DNA of 22,152 bases from an uncultured Kofleriaceae bacterium (GCA_964617845.1 CAZUAR010000026.1:20669-42820); one strand, 5' to 3'; shown: positions 1 through 21,152, counted from the first letter of the stretch. The notes: generated by a model from the letters alone, not told the origin. Program-made: numbers and translations.

Positions 1-945
1 GCCCCGGCCCCAGGGGCGGACGGCAAGGCCGCGCCGAAGGGCGACGCGAAGAAGCCCGAGACGAGCTCCGAGGCGAAGAAGCCCGAGCCGAAGAGGCCCG
101 AGCCGCCCGACGACGAAGACGACCCGAACAAGCTGCCGACGGCGCCGCCGTGGTGGAAGACGCTGCGCGCGGATCCGCCGCCGCTCGTCCGCGCGGCGCT
201 CGGCGCCACCCTGATCTCGCTCGTCCTCCTGCTCTGGTTCGTGCTCACGTACGGCGACGATCCGACGTCGCGCATCGTGTCGCCGTCCAAGCTGCCGAGC
301 CCGGGCGAGGTGTTCGGCTCGCTCGGCAAGCTGCTCGATCGCGACTTCACCGACAGCCTGATCGACACGCTGATCCGCGTGTTCAAGGGCATCGGCCTCG
401 CCGCGTTGATCGGCATCACCGCCGGCGTCTGGGCGGGTGCGAACCGCGGCGTCGGCAGCGCGCTCGAGCCGCTCGTCATCTTCCTGCGCTCGGTGCCGAT
501 GGGCGCGCTGATCCCGCTGACGCTGCTCCTCTTCGGTGACGGCGAGAAGCAGAAGTGGATGTTCATCTTCCTCGCGGTCGTGCCGTTCGTGTTCAGCGAC
601 ACGGTCAAGGCGGTGTCGATCGTGCCCGAGCGGTACGTCGAGACCGCGCAGACGCTCGGCGCGTCGCGCTTGCAGATCATCCGCAAGGTGCTCATCCCGC
701 TCGCGCTGCCGGACATCATCACGAGCTTGCGATTCCTCCTCGGTCTCGCACTCGGCTACATCATGCTCGTCGAGGTCGTGAACACGCCGCACGGCCTGGG
801 CACGATGCTCAACACGAGCCAGCGCCAGGGGCTCTACGAGCAGATCTATCTGCTCCTGTTCGTGATCACGTTCGTCGCGTTCGCGCTCGACTTCCTCCTT
901 CGCGGCCTGCAGCGCGAAGCGTTCCGCTGGAGGAAGGACCTGTGA
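1..945 (+). CDS. ABC transporter permease, NitT/TauT (SsuC/TauC/NrtB-like) family. The 5' end runs off the window because frame 1 is open from nt 1. K/P/E-rich N-terminal extension (AKKPE repeats) precedes the first TM helix.
   Basis: Frame 1 is open from position 1 through TGA at 943-945. Permease signature ETAQTLGASRLQIIRKVLIPLALP (EAA-loop, ...LGAS..Q......LP). Multiple hydrophobic helices. High GC3. Confidence 0.85.
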   Translation, partial: APAPGADGKAAPKGDAKKPETSSEAKKPEPKRPEPPDDEDDPNKLPTAPPWWKTLRADPPPLVRAALGATLISLVLLLWFVLTYGDDPTSRIVSPSKLPSPGEVFGSLGKLLDRDFTDSLIDTLIRVFKGIGLAALIGITAGVWAGANRGVGSALEPLVIFLRSVPMGALIPLTLLLFGDGEKQKWMFIFLAVVPFVFSDTVKAVSIVPERYVETAQTLGASRLQIIRKVLIPLALPDIITSLRFLLGLALGYIMLVEVVNTPHGLGTMLNTSQRQGLYEQIYLLLFVITFVAFALDFLLRGLQREAFRWRKDL

Positions 946-2207
946 CCCACGACGCGAAGCAGCCGCCCGGCGGCACCGGCACCGGCCCCGCGGGCGGCGT
1001 CGCGAAGACGCCGACGCCACCCGCGCGCGATCCCGCCGCCGAGGCCGCCGCGCTCGAGGCCGAGGACTCGCCGGCGAAGGTGTCCGCGATTCCGGAGCCC
1101 AAGACGCCCGCGCCGTCGCCGTCGATCGAGGTGAAGCCGGTCGCGCCGCTCGGCAAGCCGCTCGCGAAGCCGCCGGTCGTGCTGTTCGACAAGGTGACCA
1201 AGACGTACGGCAAGGGCAGCGCCGCGTTCACCGCGATCAAGGATGTCTCGTTCGAGATCCCGGACTATCCGGGGCGCGGCGAGTTCGTCTCGATCCTCGG
1301 CCCGTCGGGCTGCGGCAAGTCGACGGTGATCCGGCTGATCGCGGGCCTCTTGCCGCAGTTCCCGCAGACGTCGGGGCGCGTGCTCATCGACGGCAAGCCG
1401 GTGAAGGGCCCGGGCCCCGATCGCGGCATGGTGTTCCAGGACTACACCTCGTTCGACAACCGCACCGTCCTCGAGAACGTCGCGTTCGGTCTCGAGTGCC
1501 GCGGGCTCACGCGCGCGATCGCGAGCGTCTCGCGCAAGCAGACCGTCACGCAGTACACGACGCACCAGGCGCACGACTTCTCGCGCGGCATGAAGGTCGC
1601 GATCCAGGGCATCGGCGATGCGTCGTTCAACGGCTCGTTCGAGATCGCGGCGACTCCCGCGCCGAACGTGTTCACGGTGCAACAGCAGGGCGAGGACGGT
1701 CATCGCGGCGAAGGCGGCACCGTCACCGTGCCGAAGCTGTCGAAGAGCGAGCGCAACGACCGCGCGAAGTACTGGATCGAGAAGGTCGGCCTCTCCGTCA
1801 AGCGCGACTCCGACAAGTATCCGCACCAGCTCTCCGGAGGCATGCGCCAGCGCGTCGCGATCGCGCGCACGCTGATCCTCGAGCCGCGCATCATCCTGAT
1901 GGACGAGCCGTTCGGTGCGCTCGATCCGCCTACCCGCTCGCGCATGCAGGACAACCTGGTCGCGCTGTGGCGCGAGCAATCGCCAACGATCTTCTTCATC
2001 ACGCACTCGATCGAAGAAGCCGTGTTCCTCGGCGACCATATCCTCATGTTCTCGACATCGCCGGGCACGGTCCTCGAGCAGATCCGCGTGCCGCCGCCCG
2101 ATCGCCCGTCGATCGTGATGCAGCGCGATCCGAAGTTCATCGAGATCGTCCTCGGTCTGCGCGAGAAGATCGACCACCTCGAATCGTCGCAGCGAGCGGG
2201 GGACTGA
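942..2207 (+). CDS. ABC transporter ATP-binding protein, NitT/TauT (SsuB/TauB-like) family. Carries an ~85-aa Pro/Ala-rich N-terminal extension and an ~85-aa insertion between the Q-loop and the signature motif.
   Basis: GTG at 942 overlaps the permease stop (GTGA), with AGGAAGGA at 931-938 as an SD. Walker A GPSGCGKST, Q-loop MVFQ, signature LSGGMRQR, Walker B ILMDEPFGALD, H-loop ITHS. ORF-track portion 555-941 is an Arg-rich out-of-frame overlap of the permease and is not coding. Confidence 0.85.
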   Translation: MTHDAKQPPGGTGTGPAGGVAKTPTPPARDPAAEAAALEAEDSPAKVSAIPEPKTPAPSPSIEVKPVAPLGKPLAKPPVVLFDKVTKTYGKGSAAFTAIKDVSFEIPDYPGRGEFVSILGPSGCGKSTVIRLIAGLLPQFPQTSGRVLIDGKPVKGPGPDRGMVFQDYTSFDNRTVLENVAFGLECRGLTRAIASVSRKQTVTQYTTHQAHDFSRGMKVAIQGIGDASFNGSFEIAATPAPNVFTVQQQGEDGHRGEGGTVTVPKLSKSERNDRAKYWIEKVGLSVKRDSDKYPHQLSGGMRQRVAIARTLILEPRIILMDEPFGALDPPTRSRMQDNLVALWREQSPTIFFITHSIEEAVFLGDHILMFSTSPGTVLEQIRVPPPDRPSIVMQRDPKFIEIVLGLREKIDHLESSQRAGD

Positions 2208-2209
2208 CC

Positions 2210-3145
2210 GTGGCAGAGAAGAAAAGAGCCGGCCTGCTTCGCTACCTGAAGGAAGCGTTCATGTTCCGCTGGAACCTGCTCGTCTTCGGCGGTGCCGCGG
2301 CCGCGGCGGTGGTGTCGGGACACGCGGACATCGCCTTGCCGCTCGTGGCCGCCGCGGAGGTCACGTACCTCGCGGGGCTCACCACGCTGCCGCGGTTCCA
2401 GGCCGCGATCGACGCGAAGGCGCGCGCCGAGGAGAAGGGCGATCCGAGCGGCAACGCGCTGCGGAGCCAGGACCAAGGCAACGCGCGCGACCGCATCCTC
2501 GACGTGCTGAAGTCGCTGACCGAGGATCGCCGCTCGCGCTTCCTGCGGCTGCGCGCGCGCTGCGTGGAGATGTCGCGCATCGCGAACGCGGTCCGGGGCG
2601 ACACGCGCGATGCGAGCGGCGCGTCGCACGAGCTGCGAACGCCGGCGCTCGACCGCCTGCTGTGGGTGTTCCTGCGGCTGTTGCTGAGCGAGCAAGCGAT
2701 CTCGCGGTTCCTCCAGGCCGCCGACGAGAGCGCGATCAACAAGACCGTCGCCGACCTGAAGGTGCGCCGCAAGAAGCGCGCGGACTCCGTCGGCGAGGCG
2801 AACCAGGCGGAGGACCGCATCATCCGCTCGCTCGACGACAGCATCGCGACCGCCGAGGCGCGCAAGGAGAACGTCGATCGCGCGCGCCAGAACGCCGAGT
2901 TCATCGCGACCGAGCTCGATCGCCTGGAGAACAAGATCCAGGCGGTCACCGAGATGGCGGTCGGACACTCGGATCCCGACGAGATGTCGAGCCGCATCGA
3001 CGCGATCAGCGAGGGCATCTCGCAGACGGAAGCGACGATCCGCGAGCTGCAGCAGATCACCGGCGTCAGCGATGCAGACACGACGCCGTCGATCCTCGAC
3101 GCGGATCTCGCCGCACCACGGGCGGTTGAAGGGCAGCGCAAATGA
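2210..3145 (+). CDS. Hypothetical membrane-anchored coiled-coil protein: one N-terminal TM helix, then a long helical heptad-like C-terminal region.
   Basis: GTG at 2210, 2 nt after the upstream stop, with GGGGGA at 2197-2202. Alternative ATG at 2261 with GGAAG at 2251-2255. Hydrophobic segment WNLLVFGGAAAAAVVSG...LPLVAAA. C-terminal region rich in E/R/K/A/I with periodicity (IATAEARKENVDRARQNAEFIATELDRLENKIQAVTEM). The stop is embedded in ATGA with the next start. Confidence 0.6.
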   Translation: MAEKKRAGLLRYLKEAFMFRWNLLVFGGAAAAAVVSGHADIALPLVAAAEVTYLAGLTTLPRFQAAIDAKARAEEKGDPSGNALRSQDQGNARDRILDVLKSLTEDRRSRFLRLRARCVEMSRIANAVRGDTRDASGASHELRTPALDRLLWVFLRLLLSEQAISRFLQAADESAINKTVADLKVRRKKRADSVGEANQAEDRIIRSLDDSIATAEARKENVDRARQNAEFIATELDRLENKIQAVTEMAVGHSDPDEMSSRIDAISEGISQTEATIRELQQITGVSDADTTPSILDADLAAPRAVEGQRK

Positions 3146-4947
3146 CCGAAGGCGATGCGAAGGGCAACGACAAGAAGACGCTCGCCGGCAATGACGGCGT
3201 CACCAAGGCGACCGCGCTGCCGCCGCACTTCCCGGCGTGGGCCGGCAAGCTCGCCGAGCTGTACTTCAGCGGCACGACGTCGATGTTCATCGTGCACGGC
3301 AACACCTTCGACGTCGTGCGCGCCGCGCCGGACCGGTGGACCGGGCTGACGGAGTTCCTCTCCGAGCAGCTGTTCGGCCGGTGGGACCTCGTGATCAAGT
3401 ACGACCTCGCGAGCGGCCTGCGCTGCAGCGCGGGCTCGAACAGCAAGCGCCTGCAGGACATGGTCGAGACCGCAAACCGGTGGCTCGGCGATCTGCGCGC
3501 CCTGCCCCGCGATCCGACGAAGGGCCTGCTCGCGCTCGATCTGTTCGTGCAGAAGAACGTGATGGCGGACCCCGAGAAGCGGCTCCGCTGCGCGATCATC
3601 ATCGACCACGCGGGCTACGTGGCGCCGAACGGCGACAACCTCGACCTCAACGAGCAGACGCACCTCGTGACGCTGCTCAACTGGTCGTCGAGCCCGTACG
3701 TCAAGCGCTTGAACATGGCGTTCGTGCTGATCGATCCACGGCTGTCGTCGATCAACGATCGCCTCGCCGGCAACCCGCACGTCGCTTCGATCGAGGTGCC
3801 GCTGCCCGACGCGCCGGAGCGCACCGCGTTCCTCGAGAACCAGATCAGGATGAGCGGCAAGGACCTGGCGTCGTTCTCCGACTACACGGTCGCGGAGCTC
3901 GGCAAGCTCACCGCGGGCATCGGGCTCACCGATCTCGAGGTGCTGCTCGCGTCGACGATCGAAGGCAATCGCCGTCTCGATCGCGTGTACTTCAAGGAGC
4001 TGAAGAAGCGCCTGATCGAGCGCCAGGCCCAGGGCCTGCTCGAGTTCGTCGAGCCGAAGTGGGGCCTCGACACCGTCGTCGGTCACGACGCGGCGAAGAA
4101 GCGCCTCCTCGACGACGCGGAGCTGATCAAGCGCGGCGAGCTCGACACCGTGCCGATGGGCTACCTGTTCTGCGGACCGGTCGGCACCGGCAAGAGCTTC
4201 CTCGCGACGTGCGTCGCCGGATCGATCGGCATCCCGGCCGTCGTGCTGAAGAACTTCCGCTCCAAGTACGTCGGCGAGACCGAGGGCAACCTCGAGCGCG
4301 TGCTCGGCGTGCTGCGCTCGATGGGCCCGGTCGTCGTCATCGTCGACGAAGCCGACGCGATGCTCGGCGATCGCGATCAGGGCGGCGACTCCGGGGTCGG
4401 CGGTCGCGTGTTCGCGCTGATCGCGTCGCAGATGGGCGACACCGCGTACCGCGGCAAGATCATCTGGATGCTGCTGACGGCGCGCCCCGACAGCCTGCCG
4501 GTCGACCTCAAGCGCCAGGGCCGCGCCGAGGTGCATATCCCGCTGTTCTATCCGGTCGATCAGCAGGAGCTGAAGTCGATGCTCGTCATCCTCGCGCGCA
4601 AGGCGGGCACGCAGATCAACGAGGCCGACCTCCCCGAGACGGTGCCGCACCAGGGCAACCTCAGCGGCGCGGACGTCGAGGGCATCATCGGCCGCGCGTT
4701 CCGTACGTCGCTGCTGTCCGGCTCTCGGACGATCACGAAGGTCGCGCTCGAGCAGGCGCTCGCCGGCTTCATGCCATCGACGCAGACGCTCGAGCGCGAG
4801 GCGCAGGAGCTCGCGGCGATCATCGAGTGCACCGACATCGAGTTCCTGCCGCAGAGCAAGCGAGACAAGCTCGACAAGTTCGGCGGGCGCGAGAAGCTGC
4901 AGGAACGGCTCACCGCCATCAAACAGATCCTCGAAGAACGCAAATAG
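3142..4947 (+). CDS. AAA family ATPase of the classical AAA clade (Ycf46/CDC48-like module) with an ~330-aa uncharacterised N-terminal domain.
   Basis: ATG at 3142 overlaps the upstream stop (ATGA). Walker A GPVGTGKSF, Walker B VVVIVDEADAM, second region of homology LTARPDSLPVDLKRQGRAEVHIPL (compare TNRPD..D.AL.RPGRFD). Coherent codon bias. Confidence 0.85.
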   Translation: MTEGDAKGNDKKTLAGNDGVTKATALPPHFPAWAGKLAELYFSGTTSMFIVHGNTFDVVRAAPDRWTGLTEFLSEQLFGRWDLVIKYDLASGLRCSAGSNSKRLQDMVETANRWLGDLRALPRDPTKGLLALDLFVQKNVMADPEKRLRCAIIIDHAGYVAPNGDNLDLNEQTHLVTLLNWSSSPYVKRLNMAFVLIDPRLSSINDRLAGNPHVASIEVPLPDAPERTAFLENQIRMSGKDLASFSDYTVAELGKLTAGIGLTDLEVLLASTIEGNRRLDRVYFKELKKRLIERQAQGLLEFVEPKWGLDTVVGHDAAKKRLLDDAELIKRGELDTVPMGYLFCGPVGTGKSFLATCVAGSIGIPAVVLKNFRSKYVGETEGNLERVLGVLRSMGPVVVIVDEADAMLGDRDQGGDSGVGGRVFALIASQMGDTAYRGKIIWMLLTARPDSLPVDLKRQGRAEVHIPLFYPVDQQELKSMLVILARKAGTQINEADLPETVPHQGNLSGADVEGIIGRAFRTSLLSGSRTITKVALEQALAGFMPSTQTLEREAQELAAIIECTDIEFLPQSKRDKLDKFGGREKLQERLTAIKQILEERK

Positions 4948-4963
4948 GACAGGAGATAACGCC

Positions 4964-5257
4964 ATGGCACGCAGCAGCTGGATCAACGACGACTCGACGC
5001 CGGATCTCGACGAGCACGTCGGCAAGCTCGAACACTTCGCCACCGCGCTGGCCGACGGCGTGGTCGACGCGAAGGAGCTGTCGACGCAGGAGGCGAACCT
5101 CGTCGCGGCGATGAAGGCCGTCGAGGGCTCGCTGTCCGACGATCAGCACCAGAAGGTCACCAAGCTCCTCGCCGAGCTGACGGCGTACAGCGTCATGCGC
5201 ACGCTGCACGAGATGGCGCAGGCGCGCGTGGCCCAGGCGGTCGCAGCGAAGAAGTAG
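4964..5257 (+). CDS. Hypothetical small acidic protein (97 aa), predicted all-helical.
   Basis: ATG at 4964 preceded by AGGAGA (4951-4956, 7-nt spacer) in a locally AT-richer linker. Non-shadow amino-acid composition (D/E/K/Q/T-rich). 16 nt downstream of the AAA gene stop. Confidence 0.6.
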   Translation: MARSSWINDDSTPDLDEHVGKLEHFATALADGVVDAKELSTQEANLVAAMKAVEGSLSDDQHQKVTKLLAELTAYSVMRTLHEMAQARVAQAVAAKK

Positions 5258-5259
5258 CC

Positions 5260-5799
5260 GTGGGCGGCCTCGATCCAGCGCGCCTCAAGGCCATCTTCGA
5301 TCGCGTCGAGCGCATGATCGAAGACCGGTGGGGCATCCCCGTGAAGATCAAGGACGTCCCGAATCCGTTCACGGGTGACCTGGACGGCGAGCAGATCCAC
5401 ATCGACTACGACATCGAGGTCGAGGACGCGCTGTTCGTCCTCGTCCACCTGTTCGGGCACACCGTGCAGTGGAACATGTCGGAGGACCTGCGCGAGATCG
5501 CGTTCCTCAAGCCGGACCAGTGGACGGACGAGCTTTTGGCGCGGCTGTCGGCCTACGAGGCGGAAGCCTGCCAGTACAGCCTCCAGCTCCTCCACGACGC
5601 CGGCGTGTACGACCTCGACCAGTGGGTGGCGGACTTCGCGGCGTGCGACTCCGCCTACCTGATGCACTTCTATAAGACGGGCGAGAAGCGAGCGTTCCGG
5701 TCGTTCTGGACCGATGGCAACCCGGTGCTTACCCCAAAGCCCATCCCCGAGTTCAAGCCAACCATGTGGCTCGCTCGGAACGATGGCGTGGTGATCTAG
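5260..5799 (+). CDS. Hypothetical protein (179 aa) with an HLFGH...E...E motif. Unknown function.
   Basis: GTG at 5260, 2 nt after the upstream TAG, with AAGAAG upstream. Alternative internal ATG about 18 codons downstream. Composition is W/Y/F/D/E-rich and not shadow-like. Ends TAG 5797-5799. Confidence 0.55.
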   Translation: MGGLDPARLKAIFDRVERMIEDRWGIPVKIKDVPNPFTGDLDGEQIHIDYDIEVEDALFVLVHLFGHTVQWNMSEDLREIAFLKPDQWTDELLARLSAYEAEACQYSLQLLHDAGVYDLDQWVADFAACDSAYLMHFYKTGEKRAFRSFWTDGNPVLTPKPIPEFKPTMWLARNDGVVI

Positions 5800-5822
5800 T
5801 CGTTGCTGTATGCTGAGACGGG

Positions 5823-7997
5823 GTGCTCGCGCGACGGATCATTGTCGTGGCTCCGGACAAGGCGTTCGGGAAGCAGCTCGCGGTTGCCCTGAAGGCCGCG
5901 GGCGGCACCGTCGACTCGCATACAGGCCTCGACCAGCTCGGTAACCAGATCCAGGCCGCGCTGATCGTGGTGCACCTCGACGGTGACATCGCGGGCATCG
6001 GACCGGACCTGCTCCAGCGGTTGATCGGCGACACGCGGATGATCGCGATCCTTCCGCGCTCGAACCTCGCCGCGGTCGTCGACATCATGCAGGCGTCCGA
6101 TCGCGTCGCGGGCATGGTCGTGGCCGAGGACTTCGACTCGCGACAGCTGTCCGCGATGGCGACGCGCGTGCTGTCCGGCGACATCTTCGGTGTCGACAAG
6201 CTGATCCTGTGGGGCACGCAGATCCACTCGTGCCTCGTCGGCGACTACCAGGAGAAGTCGCTGTGCATCTCGCAGATCAGCGAGTTCGCCGAGATGATGG
6301 GCGTGCGGCGCAAGTATCGCGAGTCGATCGAGCAGTGCATCGACGAGATGCTGATGAACGCGTTGTACGACGCGCCCGTCGACGATCAGGGAAAGCAGAT
6401 CTTCTCCGAGATCCCGACGAAGACACGCATCTCGCTCCGGCTCGATCAGAAGGCGGTCGTGCAGTACGCGTGCGACGGGCATCAGTTCGTCGTCGCGGTG
6501 CGCGATGCGTTCGGCACCCTCGAGCGCTCGACGGTGCTGCGCTACCTGCACAAGTGCCTCCACAGCGAGCAGCAGATCGATCGCAAGGCCGGCGGTGCGG
6601 GCCTCGGGCTCTACCTGATGACGAACGCGTCGTCGACGGTCTACTTCAACGTGCTGCCCGGCGTCGCGACCGAAGCGGTGTGCTGCTTCGATCTCGAGCA
6701 GCCGAAGATGCAGCTCGAGGCGTTCGGCTTCTTCCACGAGAAGATCGACGCCGCGGGTCGCCTCGCGACCGGACCGTCGCGGCGGTTGCCCATGGGGCAT
6801 CCCGTCGAGCGGCGCGCGCCTCGCCACCCGCCGGCGCCGCAGCAGTCGCGCGCGGTCATCTACGTGCTGGTCGCCGCGATCGTCGCGACGCTCGCGCTCG
6901 TCGGCGTCGCGGCCTACCCGCGCCTGTTCGGCGTGCAAAAGACCGCGGTCACGATCAAGACCGTGCCCAAGGGCGCGCTGATCGAGGTCGAAGGCAAGAA
7001 CGCGGGCACCGCCACGGACGGCACGCTCGTCGTGCGCGAGCTCGAGGTCGGGCGCGCGTATCCGATCGTCGCGCGCCTCGACGGATACGAGCCGCGCCAG
7101 GCCGTGGTGCAGCCGCGGTCGGGCACGAACGAGGTCACCCTCGAGCTGCACGCGCTCGCACCGACGGTGCGCATCGACTCGCTGCCGACGGGCGCGAGCG
7201 TCGACATCGACAGCAAGCCCGCGGGCACGACGCCGCTCGTGCTGTCGACGGCCCAGGCCGGAAGCACGATCACCCTGACGTTCAAGAAGAACGGGTACCA
7301 GCCCGCGACCGCGGAGCTCGAGGTTCCCGGCCCCGGCAAGGAGACGCGCCTGATCCAGCCGCTGGCGGTGAGCGATGACCTCGCGCGCATCAAGCTGACC
7401 TCGGAGCCGCCGGGCGCGCAGGTCGTGCAGAATGGCCAGCTGCTCGCCGGCGTGACCACGCCCGCCGAGGTGCTCGTCGAAGCCGGCAAGACCGTGCGCT
7501 TCACGCTGACGATGCCGAACAAGGTGCCGGCGGTGATCGAGCCCTTCACGCCGGGCCGCGGCGCGTCGGGCCTCGTGCGCAACGCGAAGCTCGTCGACGG
7601 CCGCACGCTCACCGTGACCTCGAACCTCGATGGCAAGGTCTCCGTCGGCGGGGCTTCGCACTGCCAGAACCTCGCGGTGCCCGCGACGTGCGTGGTGGCG
7701 CCGGGGCGGTACACGGTCGAGCTCGTCGCTGCCGTCGACCGGGCCGTCGGCGGGAAGGTCACGCGCAAGGTCGCGGTCGGCGAGAAGGGCGCGGCGGCGA
7801 TCGAGGAGAAGATCGAGCTCGGCTACGTCGAGGCCGGCCCGAACAAGCTGATCGATCTCGGCGGCAAGAAGGTCCGGCGCGTCGCGTTCGAGGTCGGCCC
7901 GCGCAAGGTGACGGTCGTCGGCACGCCCGGCCATGACGAGCCCGCGCACCCCGCGAATGTCGTGGTGAAAGCGGGCGCGACGGTGATCGTCAACTGA
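5823..7997 (+). CDS. Multidomain membrane signalling protein: N-terminal degenerate receiver-like domain, GHKL/HATPase-like (anti-sigma-factor-like) region, one TM helix, and a C-terminal tandem of PEGA domains.
   Basis: GTG at 5823 is the first start after an in-frame TGA at 5814. Receiver-like IIVVAPD...LIVVHLDGD...IAILPRS lacks the conserved Lys. N-box-like IEQCIDEMLMNALYDAP and G2-like GGAGLGLYLM. TM helix AVIYVLVAAIVATLALVGVAAYP at about 6850-6918. Repeated P.GA.V modules (TVPKGALIEV, SLPTGASVDI, SEPPGAQVVQ) typical of PEGA domains. Confidence 0.75.
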   Translation: MLARRIIVVAPDKAFGKQLAVALKAAGGTVDSHTGLDQLGNQIQAALIVVHLDGDIAGIGPDLLQRLIGDTRMIAILPRSNLAAVVDIMQASDRVAGMVVAEDFDSRQLSAMATRVLSGDIFGVDKLILWGTQIHSCLVGDYQEKSLCISQISEFAEMMGVRRKYRESIEQCIDEMLMNALYDAPVDDQGKQIFSEIPTKTRISLRLDQKAVVQYACDGHQFVVAVRDAFGTLERSTVLRYLHKCLHSEQQIDRKAGGAGLGLYLMTNASSTVYFNVLPGVATEAVCCFDLEQPKMQLEAFGFFHEKIDAAGRLATGPSRRLPMGHPVERRAPRHPPAPQQSRAVIYVLVAAIVATLALVGVAAYPRLFGVQKTAVTIKTVPKGALIEVEGKNAGTATDGTLVVRELEVGRAYPIVARLDGYEPRQAVVQPRSGTNEVTLELHALAPTVRIDSLPTGASVDIDSKPAGTTPLVLSTAQAGSTITLTFKKNGYQPATAELEVPGPGKETRLIQPLAVSDDLARIKLTSEPPGAQVVQNGQLLAGVTTPAEVLVEAGKTVRFTLTMPNKVPAVIEPFTPGRGASGLVRNAKLVDGRTLTVTSNLDGKVSVGGASHCQNLAVPATCVVAPGRYTVELVAAVDRAVGGKVTRKVAVGEKGAAAIEEKIELGYVEAGPNKLIDLGGKKVRRVAFEVGPRKVTVVGTPGHDEPAHPANVVVKAGATVIVN

Positions 7998-8116
7998 CGA
8001 AGCGACCGTCGACGGAGCCCGCGGAGGCCGGGGACGACAGGACCTGGCTCCTGCCTCCGACGCCGTCGCCGGAGGTCGCGCAGCGCCTGCAGCACCTCGC
8101 GCTCGCGCGCGCGTCG

Positions 8117-9781
8117 GTGTTCCTCCCGATCGTCCTCGTCGGCATCGTCATCGCGCTCGCGATCAGCGAGCCGAGCGGCGTGCCGGTGACATGGCCGATC
8201 ATCGCGACGAACGGCGTCGCGCTCGCGGCCGGGGCCGCGCTGTACATCGCGCTGCGCAAGGGCAAGCTGCCGGTGTCGCAAGCGCACGCGGTCAGCGCGC
8301 TGATCTGGCTCCTGCCGCCGGTCAACACGCTCACGTCGCTGCTCTTGACCGACGTCCCGACGCTGACCCTGATGCTGATGATCGAGCTCGCGAGCATTCC
8401 GATCCTCATCGATACGCGATGGGCGCTCGCGGCGAGCATCCCGGTCCTCGCGAGCTCGATCCCGCTCCTGCTCCGTGCCCACACGAGCGGCGTGTTCATG
8501 ACCGCCGTCGTCGGTGTGTGGGTCGTCGGCGTGCTGATGCAGCTCGTGTTGCGCCGCGCGACGATCCGCGGCGAGACCCACCGCCATCACTTGATGACGG
8601 CGCTGGAGACGCTCGAGGTCGAGCTCGCCGAACGCAAGCGGGCCGAGGCAGACCGCGAGGCGCTCCGCGATCAGTTCGTGCACGCGCAGCGAATGGAGGC
8701 GGTCGGCACGCTGTCGGCCGGCCTCGCGCACGACATGAACAACATCCTCGGCGGCATCCTCGCGTTCGCACAGATCTTGCGCGCGGAGGCCACGGACAAG
8801 CAGGTCCAGCAGGATCTCGATCGCATCCGGCAGGAGGCCGAGCGCGGCGCGGCGCTGACGCGTGGGCTCCTCGCGTTCTCGCGGCGCGGCGCGTATCGCC
8901 GGCGACCACTGCCGCTCGCGAGCGTGCTCGACGACATGACGCCGCTCCTCAAGACGCTCGGCAAGGGCATCTCGATCGAGCGCATCGATGGGCCGATGAT
9001 GATCGTCGACGGCGATCCGGCGCAGCTCGGCCAGGTGCTGTTCAACCTGTGTCGCAACGCCGCGGACGCGATGGGCGGCGAAGGCACGATCGTGATCAAG
9101 ACCGCCCAGGTCGAGCGCTCTGCCATCACCCACGCGAAGCTCTCGGTCACGGACACCGGCAGCGGCATGGACGAGGCGACGAAGAAGCGCATGTTCGAGC
9201 CATTCTTCACCACCAAGCCGATCGGCAAGGGCACCGGCCTCGGGCTCGCGATGGTGTACGGCGCGATCGAGGCGCACGACGGTGCGATCGAGGTGCGCTC
9301 CGCGCCGGGCGAAGGCACGACGGTGAACATCTACCTGCCGATCACCGAGGAGCTGCCGCAGCTCGCCCAGCGCGCCGCGGGCCAGGCGAGCGTGCGCCGT
9401 GGCCACGTGCTGATCGTCGACGACGACGCGACGATGCGCGAGGCGACGGCGCGCATCGCCGAGGGTATCGGCCTCACGCCTCTCGTCGCCTCCAACGGCA
9501 AGGAAGCGCTCGCGGTGTGGGCGCAGCACAAGGGGGCGATCACGCTCGTGCTGCTCGACATGGTGATGCCCGAGCTCGACGGCGCGGCGACGTTTCGCGC
9601 GCTGCGCGAGCAATCGAACGTTCCGGTGCTGCTCGTGTCGGGCTACACCGATCACACCGCAGCGCAGGAGCTGCTCGCGGAAGGCGCGGAAGGCTTCCTC
9701 GAGAAGCCGTTCACGGCGGAGGAGCTCGCCGGGGAGATCGATCGCATCCTCGGCCGGCGCAGCTCCGAGATCGTCGCATAG
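8117..9781 (+). CDS. Hybrid sensor histidine kinase: polytopic membrane sensor region, HisKA, HATPase_c, and a C-terminal receiver.
   Basis: H-box LSAGLAHDMNNIL, N-box LFNLCRNAADAM, G1 VTDTGSGM, F-box FEPFF, G2 GKGTGLGLAMV. Receiver HVLIVDDDATMRE...LLDMVMPELDG...LLVSGY...EKPF. Start is uncertain: GTG 8117 is the first canonical start after a stop at 7934, with no good SD. Confidence 0.85.
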   Translation: MFLPIVLVGIVIALAISEPSGVPVTWPIIATNGVALAAGAALYIALRKGKLPVSQAHAVSALIWLLPPVNTLTSLLLTDVPTLTLMLMIELASIPILIDTRWALAASIPVLASSIPLLLRAHTSGVFMTAVVGVWVVGVLMQLVLRRATIRGETHRHHLMTALETLEVELAERKRAEADREALRDQFVHAQRMEAVGTLSAGLAHDMNNILGGILAFAQILRAEATDKQVQQDLDRIRQEAERGAALTRGLLAFSRRGAYRRRPLPLASVLDDMTPLLKTLGKGISIERIDGPMMIVDGDPAQLGQVLFNLCRNAADAMGGEGTIVIKTAQVERSAITHAKLSVTDTGSGMDEATKKRMFEPFFTTKPIGKGTGLGLAMVYGAIEAHDGAIEVRSAPGEGTTVNIYLPITEELPQLAQRAAGQASVRRGHVLIVDDDATMREATARIAEGIGLTPLVASNGKEALAVWAQHKGAITLVLLDMVMPELDGAATFRALREQSNVPVLLVSGYTDHTAAQELLAEGAEGFLEKPFTAEELAGEIDRILGRRSSEIVA

Positions 9782-9812
9782 AGCCGGCGCACGTCGTGCA
9801 CCGCTTCCGTGC

Positions 9813-10886
9813 GTGAAACCCACGATCAGAGCGATCCTGATCGCAGCGCTCGTCTCGGCGTGCGGCCGACAAGATGCTGCGCCTCCCGCCGCACCTCCCG
9901 CGACGCAGGTCGCGACGGACGAGGTCGCGATCGTCCAGTACGGCCGGCTCTCGCACGGACCCTTGATCTCGGGCACGCTCGAGGCGAGCCGAGGTGCCAC
10001 GCTCGTCGCGCGTTCCGGCGGGACGGTCCTCGAGATCGGCGCCGAGCTCGGCGATCGCGTGCGCGAGGGCACGGTGCTCGCACGGATCGAGACGGCGGCG
10101 CTCGGCTCCTCGGCGGCGGGAGCGAAGGCAGCGGTCGACGCCGCAGAAGCACAACTCGAGGTCGCGCGCCGAGAAGCGGCGGTCGACAAGCGGCTGCTCG
10201 ACAGCGGCGCGATCACGCGGCAGGTCGCCGATGCGAGCGCGAGTCGCGTCGCCGCGCAGACCGCAGCCCTCGCGCAGGCGAAGGCACAGTACGCGGCCGC
10301 GGGCGAGCAACTCGGCGACACCGTGATCCGAGCGCCCATCGACGGCGTCGTCGCGAGGCGGACCGTGAAGGTCGGCGATGTCGTCGCTCCCGGCGCTCCA
10401 CTGTACGAGCTGATCGATCCATCGTCGCTGCGCCTCGCCGCGCAGGTCCCGTCGGATCGCATCGCGGCGATCCAGGAGGGCATGGAGGTCCGCTTCGTCG
10501 TCCGCGGCTACGGCGACAAGACGTTCGTCGGGACGATCTCGCGCATCTCGCCCGCGGCCGACCCGGTGACGCGCCAGCTGCCGATCCTCGTCGACATCCC
10601 GAACGCGGCGGGCGAGCTGCGCGCCGGGCTGTACGCCCAGGGCCGGCTCGATACGGAGACCGCCGACGGCGTGATCGTGCCCGGGTCGGCGATCGACGAG
10701 AGCGGCCAGGAGCCGACGGTCGCGAAGATCGTCGGCGACAAGGTGAAGGTGGTGCCGGTCGAGCTCGGCCTGCGCGATCCGCTGACGGATCGCGTGATCG
10801 TGAAGACGGGCCTCGCGCCCGGTGACCGCGTGATCCTCCGCGCGGTCGCGGCGCCGTCCTCGGGGACCACGATCAAGGTGAGCTGA
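9813..10886 (+). CDS. Efflux RND transporter periplasmic adaptor subunit (membrane fusion protein, HlyD/AcrA-like). Lipoprotein.
   Basis: GTG start. Signal peptide plus lipobox LVSAC-G. Long Ala/Gln-rich coiled-coil hairpin (AAQTAALAQAKAQYAAAGEQL). Lipoyl/beta-barrel segments (VIRAPIDGVVARRTVKVGDVV). Stop TGA 10884-10886 immediately abuts the RND pump ATG. Confidence 0.85.
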   Translation: MKPTIRAILIAALVSACGRQDAAPPAAPPATQVATDEVAIVQYGRLSHGPLISGTLEASRGATLVARSGGTVLEIGAELGDRVREGTVLARIETAALGSSAAGAKAAVDAAEAQLEVARREAAVDKRLLDSGAITRQVADASASRVAAQTAALAQAKAQYAAAGEQLGDTVIRAPIDGVVARRTVKVGDVVAPGAPLYELIDPSSLRLAAQVPSDRIAAIQEGMEVRFVVRGYGDKTFVGTISRISPAADPVTRQLPILVDIPNAAGELRAGLYAQGRLDTETADGVIVPGSAIDESGQEPTVAKIVGDKVKVVPVELGLRDPLTDRVIVKTGLAPGDRVILRAVAAPSSGTTIKVS

Positions 10887-13800
10887 ATGCTGATCTCCGA
10901 CTTCGCGATCAAGAAGCCGATCGTCACGACCGTCGTGATGATCGCGATCGTCGTGTTCGGCATGGCGGCGCTGTCGCAGCTCGAGACCGACGAGTTCCCC
11001 GAGGTGCAGCCGCCGATCGTGTCGATCGCGATCCCCTACCCCGGCGCATCGCCCGCCGTCGTCGAGCGAGAGGTCGTCGATCGCGTCGAGGAAGCGGTGC
11101 AGTCGATCAGCGGCCTCGACAAGCTGCGCTCGACCTCGCTCGACGGCTTCGCGGTCCTGATCGCGGAGTTCGACTTCGAGAAGTCACCCGAGGAGGCGAC
11201 GCAGAACGTCCGCGACGAGATCTCCGCGATCCGCGGCGATCTCCCGCAGGAGATGGAGGAGCCGATCCTCACGCGCTTCGATCCCGCGGAGCTGCCGATC
11301 GTGTCGCTCGCGCTGTCGGCGGACACGATGGACCCGGCCGCGCTCACGCGGCTCGCCGATCCGGAGATCAAGCGCGCGCTCACCGCGATCCCCGGCGTCG
11401 CCGACGTACAGATCATCGGCGGTGTCGAGCGCGAGCTCGTGATCGAGGCGCGCCCCGAAGCGCTCGAAGCGGCCGGCCTCTCGATCGCCGACGTCTCGCG
11501 CGCGGTGCAGACGAGCAACCTCGAGGCGCCCGTCGGCCGCCTCGTCGCCGGTAAGACCGAGCGCACGATCCGTCTCTCGGGTCGCCTCGAGAGACCCGCC
11601 GACTTCGAGCAGATCGTGGTGTCGCGCGCGAACGGCCGCACCGTCTATCTCGGCGAGGTCGCCCAGATCAAGGACTCCACCGAGGAGGCGCGCAGCGCCG
11701 CGTTCTTCGGCGATCGCGCGGGCGTCGGCATCGACATCAAGAAGGCGCTCGGCTACTCGACGACCGATGTGGCGAGCCTGATCCGCATGAAGGTCGGCGA
11801 GCTGCAGGCCGGCCTCCCCGAGGGCGTGAAGCTCGACGTCGTGCGCGACGCCGGCACGCGCGTGTCCAACTCCGTCACCGATGTCGGCAAGACGCTCGCG
11901 GAGGGCGCGCTGCTCACGATCCTCGTCGTGTTCCTGTTCCTGCGCTCGTGGCGCTCGACGGTGATCACGGGCCTCGCCCTGCCCGTCTCCGTGATCGCCG
12001 CGTTCGTCACCGTGTGGGCCTGGGGCTTCACGCTCAACACGATGTCGCTGCTCGGCCTGTCGCTGGCGATCGGCATCCTCGTCGACGACGCGATCGTCGT
12101 GCGCGAGAACATCGTGCGCCACCTCGAGATGGGCCGCGATCACCTGCGCGCCGCGCGCGAAGGCACGTCCGAGATCGGCCTCGCGGTCACCGCGACCACG
12201 CTGTCGATCGTCGTCGTGTTCGTGCCGATCGCGTTCATGGGCGGCATCGCGGAGCAATGGTTCGCGCCGTTCGCGCTGACGATCGCCTCCGCCGTCCTCG
12301 TCTCGCTCTTCGTGTCGTTCTCTCTCGATCCGATGCTGTCCGCCGTGTGGGAGGACCCCGAGGCGCACGGCAAGCGCTCGTGGATCTCGCGCCGCCTCGA
12401 GTTCTTCCATCGCGCGCTCGACTGGATGACCGAGAAGTACCGCCACATCATCCGCTGGACGCTGCGCCACCGCCTGATCACGTTCGCGCTCGCGATCGTC
12501 GCGTTCGTCGCATCGATCGCGCTGCCCGCGACGGGCACCGTCGGCAGCGAGTTCTTCCCGACTACCGACGAGTCCGAGTTCCAGCTGCAGATCGAGACCC
12601 CGCCCGGCAGCTCGCTCGCCTACACGCGCGACAAGCTCGAGACGGTCTCGAGGCTCGCGCGCGAGCACTCCGAGGTCGCCTACACCTACGCGACGATCGG
12701 CGGCCAGACCGGCGAGTCCGTCGACGAAGGCAGCCTCTACGTGCGCCTCGTCCCCAAGGACGAACGCGAGCGCTCGCAACAAGCCGTGATGGCCGACCTC
12801 CGCGCCGAGATCGCCGCGACATCCGGCGTCTCCGCGTGGGTCCCGCAGGGCTTCGGCGGCGAGCGCCAGATCGCGCTGCAGTTCGTCGGCCCCGACGCGA
12901 AGGTGCTGAACCGCATCGCCCTCGACGCGGCGTCGCGCATCCGCACGATCCCCGGCGTCGTCGACGTCGGCCTGTCGTCGAAGGGCCAGCGCCCCGAGCT
13001 CTCGGTCACGCCCGACCGCGCCTCCGGCGGCGCGATCGGCATCTCCGTCGGCGACCTCGCGCAATCCCTCCGCCCCGCATTCGCCGGCCTCGACGTCGGC
13101 GACTGGATCGATCCGGCCGGCGAGACCCGCGACGTCGTCGTTCGCCTCGCCGCGGGCGCGCGCGAGCAACCGATCGATGTCGCCGCGCTCCCGATCCGCA
13201 GCGCGACCGGCTCCCCCGTCCCGCTCGCGCAGGTCGCGACGCTCGACCAGTCGCTCGCACCGACGCAGATCGAGCACCTCGACGGCCGCCGCGTCGTCAC
13301 CGTCGCGGCCAACACCGCCGGCATCCCGCTGTCCGCCGCGAACGCCGAGATCGAGAAGGCCCTCGCCGACCTGCCGCTGCCGGCCGGCTACGAGCGCCTC
13401 ACCGGCGGCCAGACCGAGGACCAGCAGGAGGTGTTCGGGCGCATCTTCATGGCGCTCGGGATCGCGATCGTCCTCATGTACTTCGTCCTCGTCGTCCAGT
13501 TCGGCTCGTTCATCGATCCGATTCCGATCATGCTCTCGCTCCCGCTGTCGCTCATCGGCGTGATGCTCGCGCTGCTGGCCTCGGGCTCGACGCTCAACCT
13601 CATGTCGATGATCGGCATGATCCTGCTGATGGGCCTCGTCGCGAAGAACGCGATCCTCCTGATCGACTTCGCGAAGCGCGCGCAGTCCGGCGGCCGCACG
13701 CGCGAGGAGGCTCTCGCCGAAGCGGGCGCGGTTCGCTTCCGCCCGATCATCATGACGAGCGTGGCGATCATCGCGGGCATGATCCCCGTCGCGCTCGGCG

Positions 13801-14015
13801 GTGGCGAAGGCGCGGACTTCCGCGCGCCGCTCGGTCGCGCGGTCATCGGCGGCGTGATGGCGTCGACGATCCTGACGCTGCTCGTGATCCCCACGTTCTA
13901 CGACGTGGTCGCGAATGCGCGCGACCGCGTGGTGAGACGCCTCCGCAAGGGGCGTCCACCGGTCCTCGGCTCGCAGAAGCTGGGCGAGACGGGCCGCCAT
14001 CCGCGGATGGAGTAG
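10887..14015 (+). CDS. Efflux RND transporter permease subunit (AcrB/HAE1-like, 1042 aa).
   Basis: ATG at 10887 directly after the adaptor stop. 12-TM architecture with two large periplasmic loops. Conserved RND TM4 region GLSLAIGILVDDAIVVRENI. Size and topology typical of the AcrB/MexB/CzcA superfamily. Confidence 0.9.
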   Translation: MLISDFAIKKPIVTTVVMIAIVVFGMAALSQLETDEFPEVQPPIVSIAIPYPGASPAVVEREVVDRVEEAVQSISGLDKLRSTSLDGFAVLIAEFDFEKSPEEATQNVRDEISAIRGDLPQEMEEPILTRFDPAELPIVSLALSADTMDPAALTRLADPEIKRALTAIPGVADVQIIGGVERELVIEARPEALEAAGLSIADVSRAVQTSNLEAPVGRLVAGKTERTIRLSGRLERPADFEQIVVSRANGRTVYLGEVAQIKDSTEEARSAAFFGDRAGVGIDIKKALGYSTTDVASLIRMKVGELQAGLPEGVKLDVVRDAGTRVSNSVTDVGKTLAEGALLTILVVFLFLRSWRSTVITGLALPVSVIAAFVTVWAWGFTLNTMSLLGLSLAIGILVDDAIVVRENIVRHLEMGRDHLRAAREGTSEIGLAVTATTLSIVVVFVPIAFMGGIAEQWFAPFALTIASAVLVSLFVSFSLDPMLSAVWEDPEAHGKRSWISRRLEFFHRALDWMTEKYRHIIRWTLRHRLITFALAIVAFVASIALPATGTVGSEFFPTTDESEFQLQIETPPGSSLAYTRDKLETVSRLAREHSEVAYTYATIGGQTGESVDEGSLYVRLVPKDERERSQQAVMADLRAEIAATSGVSAWVPQGFGGERQIALQFVGPDAKVLNRIALDAASRIRTIPGVVDVGLSSKGQRPELSVTPDRASGGAIGISVGDLAQSLRPAFAGLDVGDWIDPAGETRDVVVRLAAGAREQPIDVAALPIRSATGSPVPLAQVATLDQSLAPTQIEHLDGRRVVTVAANTAGIPLSAANAEIEKALADLPLPAGYERLTGGQTEDQQEVFGRIFMALGIAIVLMYFVLVVQFGSFIDPIPIMLSLPLSLIGVMLALLASGSTLNLMSMIGMILLMGLVAKNAILLIDFAKRAQSGGRTREEALAEAGAVRFRPIIMTSVAIIAGMIPVALGGGEGADFRAPLGRAVIGGVMASTILTLLVIPTFYDVVANARDRVVRRLRKGRPPVLGSQKLGETGRHPRME
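13998..14011. repeat. Perfect 14-bp palindrome CCATCCGCGGATGG inside the last codons of the RND pump gene. It sits 20 nt from the convergent 1575-aa gene stop; the intergenic gap is 15 bp.
   Basis: The sequence is self-complementary. It is the only obvious secondary-structure element at a tail-to-tail junction that lacks room for a conventional terminator. Confidence 0.25.
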
Positions 14016-18758: not shown

Positions 18759-19809
18759 TGTCGCCCTCCTTCTCGACCTTGCGCTTGGCGTAGATCAGCG
18801 ACGCCATGCGCATGCCTTCGCTGAACGCGATCGCCGGGACGTCGGTCACCGCGATCGGTCGCTGCTTGTCGTCGACCCAGCTCAGCTCGCCGGTCGTCGT
18901 CTCGTACATCGGATCGCCGCCGTCGCCGAGCGAGTAGCGCCCCTCGACGTAGCGGCCGTTCTCGAGCACGCGGCACACCGAAGCGCCGCCCGACACGCGA
19001 TAGCCGAGCCGCTTCGCGAGGCCGATCGCCTGCGACAGCATCGAGAACTCGCCTCCCGCGTACGTCTCGAGCGCGTGCGGATCCGCGGGCGGCGTCTTCG
19101 GCGGCGTGAACGTCTCGCGGAACAGCTGCGAGAGGCCCTGTTTCACGCCGACCTGGACCGCGAGCTCGCGCAGATCGTCGAGCTCGTCGAGCACGACCGG
19201 GTGCGGGATCATCACCGTCTCGGTCTGGAGCCACGTCGTCTCGCCATCGCGATCGACGACGCCGATGCCCTTCTGCTTGTCGACGCCGCGGAAGAACCCG
19301 CCGGCTTCACGGTCGACCTTGCCGTTCCGGTCGACACCGACGACCCACGCGTCGCGCAGCACGCGCGACCAGTGGTCATCGGCGAGCACGCTCTCGAGCA
19401 CGCCGCGCGGCACGGGGAGCGAGCGCAGCATCCATGTCTCGACGGTGTGCAGGCACGTCCGCGCGTGCTCCTCCAGGAAGTCGAGCGCCGCTTCGAGCGT
19501 CTCGCCGACCGGGGACTCCTTGACCGGCTTGGGGACCGAGCCGAGCTCCTTTCCGTCCTTCTTCGCGACGAGCTTCGGCTCGCCCTCGTCGTTCGTGCGG
19601 ATCGCGAGCGCGATGCCCTTGCCGGCGTCCATCCATCCCGGCTCCGCCGCCACCTTGCCCGCTGGCGCCTTCTGGCGCGCGGCCGACTTCGGTGCGGGTG
19701 TTGACTTTTTCGCGGCCGGCGGCTTCTTCGCCACCGCCTTCGTCTTCTTCGCTTGCGCAGACTTGTGCGCAGCTTTCGGCGCGGCCTTCTTGCCCTTGGT
19801 CTTCGCCAT
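18751..19809 (-). CDS. Hypothetical protein (352 aa) with an ~55-aa histone-H1-like K/A/P-rich N-terminal tail and a globular C-terminal domain of unknown function. Translationally coupled to the 1575-aa gene.
   Basis: ATG at 19809 with GGGGGAA upstream. N-terminus MAKTKGKKAAPKAAHKSAQAKKTKAVAKKPPAAKKSTPAPKSAARQKAPAGK. Stop TGA 18753-18751 overlaps the downstream ATG. The opposite-strand ORF 18697-19704 is Arg-rich shadow. Confidence 0.7.
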   Translation of the reverse strand: MAKTKGKKAAPKAAHKSAQAKKTKAVAKKPPAAKKSTPAPKSAARQKAPAGKVAAEPGWMDAGKGIALAIRTNDEGEPKLVAKKDGKELGSVPKPVKESPVGETLEAALDFLEEHARTCLHTVETWMLRSLPVPRGVLESVLADDHWSRVLRDAWVVGVDRNGKVDREAGGFFRGVDKQKGIGVVDRDGETTWLQTETVMIPHPVVLDELDDLRELAVQVGVKQGLSQLFRETFTPPKTPPADPHALETYAGGEFSMLSQAIGLAKRLGYRVSGGASVCRVLENGRYVEGRYSLGDGGDPMYETTTGELSWVDDKQRPIAVTDVPAIAFSEGMRMASLIYAKRKVEKEGDND

Positions 19810-21151: not shown

Positions 21152-21152
21152 G

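Follow-up and report, generated by a model that had tools for sequence, protein, structure and literature searches.

A tandem AAA ATPase gene in the probable distal part of a PspA-centred operon from an uncultured Kofleriaceae bacterium

Introduction

In the ESCRT-III/Vps4 system, Vps4 extracts subunits of ESCRT-III and so gives turnover of the assembly, and in 2021 PspA and Vipp1 were recognised as bacterial ESCRT-III proteins. The present study concerns a stretch of 22,152 nucleotides (nt), called the window hereafter, from an uncultured Kofleriaceae bacterium (GCA_964617845.1 CAZUAR010000026.1:20669-42820). It encodes a tandem AAA ATPase, g4, within a run of same-strand genes that very probably represents the distal part of a PspA-centred operon.

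Whether bacteria hold an equivalent of Vps4 has been asked by other authors; according to a review of 2025, an ATPase of the Vps4 type “appears absent in bacteria”, and ESCRT systems have been described as confined to archaea and eukaryotes (Makarova et al., 2024). An operon joining pspA to a tandem AAA gene is not mentioned by Popp et al. (2022). It was listed by Ravi et al. (2024; mSystems 9:e00847-23, PMC11237479) in the order PspA, PBPB+OmpA, permease, ATP-binding cassette (ABC) ATPase, transmembrane (TM)+“Snf7” and inactive-AAA+AAA, with OGG56892.1 from Candidatus Handelsmanbacteria as the example. These authors named the membrane-anchored family “SIG+TM+Snf7”, regarded it as divergent Snf7, arrived at the same operon model as the one given below, proposed ATP-dependent membrane remodelling and reported PspA-AAA pairs without a transporter in Firmicutes. 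The idea of a bacterial counterpart of Vps4 is therefore not new, since it was proposed there from comparative genomics.

A preliminary description of the window, made from its sequence alone, had held that no known system combines a TauT-type ABC transporter, a AAA ATPase and a membrane coiled-coil protein, which the entry of Ravi et al. (2024) contradicts. The published operon and the present one are identical in gene order and domain architecture, including the tandem AAA protein with its inactive N-terminal copy. They differ in that the former was presented in a brief passage and a single row of a table, by comparative genomics and with no experiments, and in that four elements described below are unmentioned there: the small protein g5 (by name), the protein g6, the insertion in the Kofleriaceae ABC ATPase and a VWA gene upstream of pspA. 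Full-text literature searches found no experimental work on the PspA/tandem-AAA operon, and the operon family is known from computational description. A further operon member, sharper statistics, the components g5 and g6 and a caution on the “Snf7” label are added here.

Results

The AAA gene is preceded by pspA in all relatives counted

In all of the 101 related loci in which the upstream region was counted (55 from close and 46 from more distant relatives), a pspA gene was found upstream of the AAA gene and on the same strand, either directly or with other operon genes between them. The features of the window to which this comparison refers are listed below, with positions counted from its first nucleotide and protein lengths in amino acids (aa).

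1–945, plus strand: g1, permease of an ABC importer, 5'-truncated (PF00528 BPD_transp_1, 87 bits)
942–2207, plus strand: g2, ABC ATPase, 421 aa (PF00005 ABC_tran, 105 bits)
1518–1736, plus strand: insertion of 73 aa, helical subdomain, g2 residues 193–265 (alignment of homologues)
2210–3145, plus strand: g3, membrane-anchored helical coiled-coil protein, 311 aa (hydropathy, AlphaFold2 (AF2) model, family alignment)
3142–4947, plus strand: g4, tandem (type II) classical AAA ATPase, 601 aa (Foldseek, phmmer)
3229–4041, plus strand: D1 of g4, degenerate AAA domain (hhalign of N-half against C-half, motifs, AF2 model)
4054–4821, plus strand: D2 of g4, AAA domain active by its motifs (PF00004, 80.5 bits; motifs)
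4964–5257, plus strand: g5, acidic helical protein, 97 aa, no family match
5260–5799, plus strand: g6, protein of 179 aa, no family match
5823–7997, plus strand: g7, PEGA-repeat protein, 724 aa, candidate lineage-specific extension of the operon (PF08308, 2.3e-19)

The open reading frames (ORFs) g1 to g6, all on the plus strand, agreed with the six tightly packed genes of the preliminary description in their coordinates and in their junctions. These were 4-nt overlaps at g1/g2 (GTGA, 942–945) and g3/g4 (ATGA, 3142–3145) and gaps of 2 nt (2207/2210), 16 nt (4947/4964) and 2 nt (5257/5260). The third-position GC content was 0.91–0.96 across each called frame, and purine runs resembling Shine-Dalgarno sequences were observed 5' of g2, g3, g4 and g5. 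For g3 and g6, the longer GTG starts chosen in the preliminary description were preferred over the shorter public gene calls, because conserved residues precede Met18 of g3 (Y12, E15-F17) and Met19 of g6 (F13). Scans of positions 1–10000 of the window detected no promoter-like sigma-70 site and, on the plus strand, no terminator inside the operon, a result that is consistent with one transcript and carries little information. The linkage of the six genes was thereby confirmed. The permease gene is cut by the window edge, so that the operon is 5'-truncated, and its pspA end, to judge from relatives, lies just outside the window.

To describe the close relatives, 80 genome loci were retrieved with the AAA alignment, and their six-frame ORFs were labelled with profiles of two sources, the genes of the window and those upstream in one relative (L001). 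The close homologues of g4 (79–97% identity, more than 120 clusters) all came from metagenome-assembled genomes (MAGs) named as Kofleriaceae or Myxococcota. The full gene order was counted in the 55 loci where 5.4 kb or more of sequence precedes the AAA gene; it runs pspA, the gene of a binding protein fused to an OmpA domain, permease, ABC ATPase, g3, AAA and g5, with g6 added in Myxococcota. The set from pspA to g3 was present on the same strand and in the same order in 53 of the 55 loci (Myxococcota 25/27, Acidobacteriota 18/18, Planctomycetota 2/2, Gemmatimonadota 6/6, unclassified 2/2), and in the remaining two pspA was followed directly by the AAA gene and g5. With the same order in 53 of these 55 loci, drawn from four phyla, chance does not account for the linkage. 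The same count provides the comparison of gene neighbourhoods across phyla that the preliminary description had proposed as a check, and the module did recur.

The identity of the upstream genes was supported by public gene calls on longer contigs of relatives, where a PspA_IM30 protein of 254 aa and then an NMT1+OmpA protein of 580 aa are annotated before the permease. PspA_IM30 (PF04012) scored above the cut-off in L007, whose AAA protein is 97% identical to that of the window, in L003 and in L046; NMT1+OmpA exceeded its Pfam cut-off in L007 and L046. The full operon is thus present in a cultured myxobacterium, since L046 is Paraliomyxa miuraensis SMH-27-4. In Acidobacteriota, Gemmatimonadota and Planctomycetota, a gene for a VWA-domain protein was observed directly upstream of pspA (L051:3988-4791, L072:3736-4641, L045:2223-3074 and 18 further loci), encoding a hydrophobic or lipoprotein-like N-terminus and a metal-ion-dependent adhesion site (DxSGSM...GGTAIG...TDGENT; Pfam VWA ~1e-14). 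The Kofleriaceae version of the operon lacks it.

When 1.84 billion representative proteins were searched exhaustively with HMMER, 837 of them matched g4 at E<=1e-30, and the full-length matches extended to identities as low as about 27%. From a subgroup 29–32% identical to g4, 80 soil metagenome loci (L086–L165) were collected as a distant clade, and the 46 with at least 1.9 kb upstream were counted. All 46 carry pspA and the AAA gene, with a g3-like gene besides in 33 and without one in the other 13. No ABC genes were found in the operon at any of the 46 loci, and no gene was conserved 3' of the AAA gene; at L086, genes for a permease, an ABC ATPase and a binding protein are encoded some 3 kb further downstream, on the other strand.

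As all 101 loci have pspA ahead of the AAA gene, PspA and the tandem AAA protein are the invariant pair. g3 often joins them as a third member, and the ABC importer, g5 and g6 were added in particular clades. Around the core of pspA and the AAA gene, the transporter, g3, g5 and g6 are dispensable to an increasing degree. The window region is therefore, with high confidence, the distal part of a PspA-centred operon.

These counts bear on a different reading, in which g3, the AAA protein and the small proteins would regulate or assemble a TauT/NitT-type importer, as the preliminary description had offered under the form of an accessory module for a sulfonate/nitrate transporter. In favour of it, the ABC genes lie between pspA and g3 in 53 of 55 close loci, with overlapping stop and start codons. 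Nevertheless, pspA and the AAA gene persist without ABC genes in three close loci, two of them within the 55, as well as in all 46 distant ones, where the order is pspA(-g3)-AAA, and transporterless PspA-AAA pairs occur in Firmicutes (Ravi et al., 2024). Because the distant clade keeps pspA without an adjacent transporter, the partner of the AAA ATPase is PspA and not the transporter, and the importer-centred reading, largely refuted by synteny, is very unlikely.

The minimal pspA-AAA-g5 loci of the close clade belong to Haliangiales/Kofleriaceae (L003/L026:9221-12108, L014:8158-11038, L018:3203-6087). The genes for the binding protein, permease, ABC ATPase and g3 are missing from them, their AAA proteins are still 79–83% identical to that of the window, and in one relative at 79% identity the PspA_IM30 gene abuts the AAA gene. 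g6 is absent from L014 and L018, and the contig of L003/L026 stops shortly after g5. These loci look like deletion variants or close paralogues.

A link to Ycf46, a cyanobacterial AAA protein connected with inorganic carbon uptake, had also been considered, the bicarbonate transporter CmpABCD being of the same ABC family; this idea was dropped, as PspA is upstream in every relative.

The tandem AAA ATPase g4 has a degenerate first domain

The classical AAA domain announced in the preliminary description was found by Pfam at residues 342–467 of g4 (PF00004). The 330 residues before it, which had been described there as an N-domain of unknown type, proved to be a second, degenerate AAA domain. 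With the whole AF2 model of g4 (predicted local distance difference test (pLDDT) 75, shallow alignment) as query, Foldseek aligned 480–630 columns on D1-D2 of Cdc48, p97, Rix7 and AFG2 (E ~1e-17, probability 1.0). A family alignment of 56 diverse homologues (27–61% identity) was split into N-half and C-half profiles, and hhalign matched the two halves at 95% in global mode (E 6.9e-9) and at 90% in local mode (E 1.7e-6), the local alignment spanning the Walker B strand through the lid. The model of D1 displays an alternating beta-alpha-beta pattern.

At the Walker A position D1 reads FIVHGNTFD, without GK[ST], and at the Walker B position IIIDHAG; as both motifs are lost, D1 cannot bind or hydrolyse nucleotide normally. 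D2 carries a Walker A motif (GPVGTGKS, 345–352), a pore loop (KYVGE, 375–379), a Walker B motif (VVIVDEAD, 398–405, with DEAD at 402–405) and a second region of homology with arginine fingers (RPD..KRQGR, 448–461). These D2 motifs were invariant over the 56 homologues and are those of a classical AAA ATPase of the substrate-threading type.

The preliminary description had also assigned g4 to a Vps4/CDC48 clade, and a specific likeness to Vps4 was not borne out. No MIT, Vps4_C, CDC48_N or CDC48_2 domain was matched; at E<=0.1, Pfam returned PF00004 and a sub-threshold AAA_22 only. The best scores were those of D domains of the Cdc48/AFG2/VAT type, and a phmmer search of the PDB ranked AFG2, VAT and p97 first (1e-31 to 1e-26). 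All NCBIfam scores stayed far below their cut-offs, with 64.6 bits against 802.65 for CDC48 (TIGR01243), 38 against 650 for CdvC and 49 against 510 for IteA. Thus, g4 represents a family of its own among the type II classical AAA ATPases, marked by a dead D1, and it is an orthologue of neither Vps4 nor Cdc48. Five members of the family (P0255, P0261, P0273, P0283 and P0358) are longer, at about 820 aa, with an extra N-terminal region of about 240–280 aa. No Pfam domain was found in these extensions, and a fusion to PspA was thereby ruled out for them.

Some of these searches touched on anti-phage defence of the kind represented by Iet, whose IetA is a AAA protein, or by ABC-type “mads” genes: PADLOC reported IetA for g4 (7.7e-15) and mad3 for g2 (1.3e-29), and NCBIfam reported IteA (5e-13). 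Such matches are confined to the generic AAA and ABC ATPase cores, and the IteA score is the sub-cut-off one given above. Furthermore, neither an IetS-like protease nor any other defence gene is adjacent, and the locus keeps 80–97% identity and a fixed chromosomal context over many Kofleriaceae MAGs, unlike mobile defence islands. A role in defence is accordingly highly improbable.

g3 and PspA carry conserved C-terminal tails

The protein g3 was confirmed as the membrane-anchored helical protein that the preliminary description had seen. It has an amphipathic N-terminus and, by hydropathy and the AF2 model, a hydrophobic helical hairpin at about residues 18–60 (nt 2261–2389). Basic residues flank the hairpin on both sides, from which we infer that most of g3, including its N-terminus, is cytoplasmic. 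The model (pLDDT 73, alignment of 82 sequences) is all-helical, with a confident long hairpin at about residues 145–252. Among 74 close-clade loci, 71 have a g3 gene directly before the AAA gene, and so do 33 of the 46 from the distant clade, where the encoded proteins are genuine homologues of g3 (hhalign 99.6%, E 2.9e-24, 246 columns).

No Pfam, NCBIfam or PADLOC family was matched by g3 above threshold, PADLOC giving weak coiled-coil matches only, and a profile search against PDB sequences found nothing. Neither PF03357 (Snf7) nor PF04012 (PspA_IM30) was matched at E<=1 by any of 49 close and 40 distant g3 homologues, and hhalign of the g3 family against the PspA family of the operon itself gave 0.1%. 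The label “divergent Snf7” was therefore not reproduced here and is unconfirmed. A remote kinship of g3 with Snf7 or PspA is possible, since all-helical, conformationally plastic folds match poorly.

At its C-terminus, g3 has a conserved tail, ITGL..(E)PPxILxxDL (nt 3056–3142), modelled with a pLDDT below 50. The PspA of the operon likewise extends past its Pfam domain with a conserved segment, ...LEVELG[LM][KR]xPETTPV...K[DN]LGPA, which also reads LEVELGLKSPETTPV...KDLGPA. Both tails are conserved, contain proline and are probably disordered, and they may be of the kind that is recognised by a threading AAA motor or its adaptor. The tail of the distant g3-like proteins is conserved as ..FGDS..AI..LD.., unlike that of the clade of the window.

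Small proteins encoded downstream of the AAA gene

The product of g5 is acidic and predicted to be helical, with a mean column identity of 64% and invariant residues W6, F25, D31-G32, E38, Q42, H62, T66 and E71. Its gene follows the AAA gene in 35 of 36 Myxococcota loci, 22 of 25 from Acidobacteriota and 2 of 2 from Planctomycetota, the minimal pspA-AAA-g5 loci included; it was found neither in Gemmatimonadota (0 of 10 loci) nor in the distant clade. No match to g5 was obtained with Pfam, NCBIfam, PADLOC or PDB-sequence profiles.

g6 is confined to Myxococcota, where its gene lies downstream of g5 in 30 of 35 loci. Its invariant motifs are HLFGHTVQW, YE and QW..DF..CD..Y, which might form a metal site. 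Pfam, NCBIfam and PADLOC held no family for it above threshold (DUF3805 appeared below threshold in one member only), and no PDB match was found. Comparisons by hhalign of g5 and g6 with PspA, and of g5 with g3 and g6, were negative.

The gene of g7 begins 23 nt past g6 and is the seventh on the same strand. The N-terminal region of g7 resembles HATPase_c_2 below the cut-off and is followed by one TM segment near residue 355 and by PEGA repeats; as with g5 and g6, PADLOC gave no match. A homologue after g6 was observed only in loci of the Kofleriaceae type (375 aa in L001), and it is uncertain whether g7 belongs to the operon.

The motifs of g6 bear on a further reading, quality control of membrane proteins, in which g4 would be an extractase like FtsH or Cdc48 that removes damaged or mislocalised proteins, perhaps subunits of the transporter, from the inner membrane, with g3 as its membrane adaptor, g6 as a downstream hydrolase (HxxxH) and PspA only sealing the leaks left behind. 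It would suit the sequence of g4, which is as close to the AAA modules of Cdc48/AFG2/VAT and FtsH as to that of Vps4, or closer, as well as the membrane anchor of g3 and the invariant HLFGH with a downstream Glu in g6; PspA is also known to counteract proton leakage. Nevertheless, g6 occurs in Myxococcota only and lacks the catalytic Glu of HExxH, the core operon contains no protease gene, and the linkage to pspA, without exception in 101 loci, and the conserved tails point to PspA and g3 as the clients. Quality control is for these reasons considered unlikely.

The ABC importer

The assignment of g1 and g2 to NitT/TauT-type permeases and ATPases in the preliminary description agreed with Pfam and NCBIfam at the family level. 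g1, encoded in relatives between the binding protein and the ABC ATPase, has six hydrophobic segments and an N-terminal extension rich in P, K and E. It scored 111 bits for SaoP (cut-off 295), 106 for TauC (342) and 89 for NtrB (209). In g2, Walker A (GPSGCGKS at 120), the signature (LSGGMRQR at 297) and Walker B (ILMDE at 318) were located, with scores of 198 bits for TauB (cut-off 357) and 186 for SaoA (360), and NrtCD-like matches as well. As all scores are far under the equivalog cut-offs, the substrate is not assignable. In relatives, the binding protein resembles NMT1/SsuA and ends in an OmpA domain of the kind that binds peptidoglycan.

The 73-aa insert of g2 lies between the Q-loop and the LSGG signature, where other homologues hold 9 residues. 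It is limited to a Kofleriaceae subclade (16 loci of the genome scan besides L004, the near-identical copy of the window, and the duplicates L001/L002), has no Pfam match and looks like a small beta-rich domain. Low-complexity N-terminal extensions rich in P, A, K and E were observed in both proteins, of about 60 aa in g1 (window 1–180) and about 80 aa in g2 (942–1180), the latter P/A-rich, both ahead of the conserved core of the protein.

Regulatory signals and neighbouring genes

Upstream of pspA, the sigma-54 consensus (TGGCAC-N5-TTGCA) was matched at 9 or more of its 11 positions in none of 55 loci, and looser thresholds revealed no enrichment, despite the presence of sigma-54 activator genes nearby. 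Within 200 nt upstream of pspA, four Kofleriaceae loci (L001, L007, L023 and L036) share a sigma-70-like motif, (C)TTGAG-N17-TA(C/T)CTT.

Beyond g7, the window encodes a hybrid histidine kinase/receiver protein (8117–9781) and a resistance-nodulation-division (RND) pair, composed of an HlyD-type adaptor (9813–10886) and an AcrB-type pump (10887–14015). A gene for an FHA+sigma-54 activator leaves the window at its end (21126–22152), and the kinase and RND genes (8117–14015) thus stand between it and g7. Hardly anything separates the g7 homologue from the FHA-sigma-54 activator gene after it in L001 and several relatives, so that the window appears to contain an insertion of about 13 kb. On the minus strand, an ORF of 1575 aa (14031–18758) had no Pfam match at E<=1e-4; the gene of a DUF4132 protein (18751–19809, minus strand) lies immediately upstream of it, with an overlap of 8 nt.

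Discussion

The locus probably belongs to a PspA-centred operon for envelope stress or membrane remodelling in which g4 would act in the manner of Vps4. Of the two readings offered in the preliminary description, remodelling of the PspA or ESCRT-III/Vps4 type was the better one and was right in kind, given that a PspA_IM30 gene heads the operon in every relative counted. As to the mechanism of g4 alone, the case for and against a Vps4-like action is evenly balanced.

Under envelope stress, PspA, and possibly g3, would form an assembly at the inner membrane, on its cytoplasmic side, with g3 as a fixed membrane anchor that tethers or nucleates the assembly. g4 would be a hexameric threading motor gripping the C-terminal tails of PspA, g3 or both, and ATP hydrolysis in D2 would extract or unfold subunits, leading to turnover or remodelling of the PspA/g3 assembly. 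The small protein g5 may serve as an adaptor or regulator of the g4 ATPase, and the wall-tethered ABC importer could tie the response to a solute in the periplasm, for instance by uptake of a protective solute. Indirect evidence for a disassembly of the polymer by g4 through these tails comes from the strict synteny, from the conserved and probably disordered tails themselves and from the threading-competent D2.

Several points weigh against this proposal. The window does not contain pspA, whose presence is deduced from relatives. g4 has no MIT domain and is no nearer to Vps4/CdvC than to Cdc48, PAN or FtsH (38 bits for CdvC, 65 for CDC48). By sequence g3 is not linked to Snf7 or PspA, and comparison of folds gave no clear link, so that a composite ESCRT-III-like polymer is conjectural. 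Because no sigma-54 promoter was found upstream of pspA, the parallel with regulation of the PspF type fails. The physical interaction of g4 with PspA or g3 is putative, as is its substrate, and the role given to the transporter is a guess.

A stronger version of the proposal is put forward with more doubt than conviction: a true ATP-driven machine of the ESCRT-III type in at least four bacterial phyla, in which a Cdc48-like tandem AAA protein would disassemble or remodel a polymer of PspA together with g3 through their tails, with g5 as an adaptor in trans replacing the MIT domain, and which would have arisen independently of archaeal Vps4. If true, this would be the bacterial Vps4 counterpart that current reviews call absent. 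The tandem AAA protein is a concrete and testable candidate for this “missing” component, with Paraliomyxa miuraensis as a cultured carrier.

Among known systems, the importers TauABC, SsuABC, NrtABCD and SaoABC are nearest to g1 and g2, and the binding protein of the relatives is NMT1/SsuA-like; they differ in that the scores fall below the cut-offs, the binding protein is fused to OmpA and g2 carries its 73-aa insert. The PspF-PspA pair of E. coli also links a AAA+ protein genetically to PspA, but PspF is an NtrC-type activator with a helix-turn-helix, whereas g4 is a classical AAA protein of the unfoldase type without a DNA-binding domain. Cdc48, p97, VAT, AFG2 and Rix7 are the best matches of g4 in sequence and fold and share with it the tandem AAA architecture and a D2 pore loop of the KYxGE type. 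Unlike them, g4 has no double-psi-barrel N-domain, has lost Walker A and B in D1 and reaches 65 bits for TIGR01243 where 803 are required. ESCRT-III/Vps4 (CdvB/CdvC) differs from the present operon in several respects, since g4 lacks both MIT and Vps4_C, has two AAA domains (with a dead D1) and not one, and is not specifically related to Vps4, its partner is PspA and not Snf7/CHMP, and the operon has an embedded ABC importer and no genes like those of ESCRT-I/II. Both have in common a polymer protein of the ESCRT-III superfamily, here PspA, encoded beside a classical AAA ATPase with an aromatic pore loop, together with candidate clients bearing conserved C-terminal tails and, as proposed here for the bacterial operon, a putative ATP-driven extraction of subunits.

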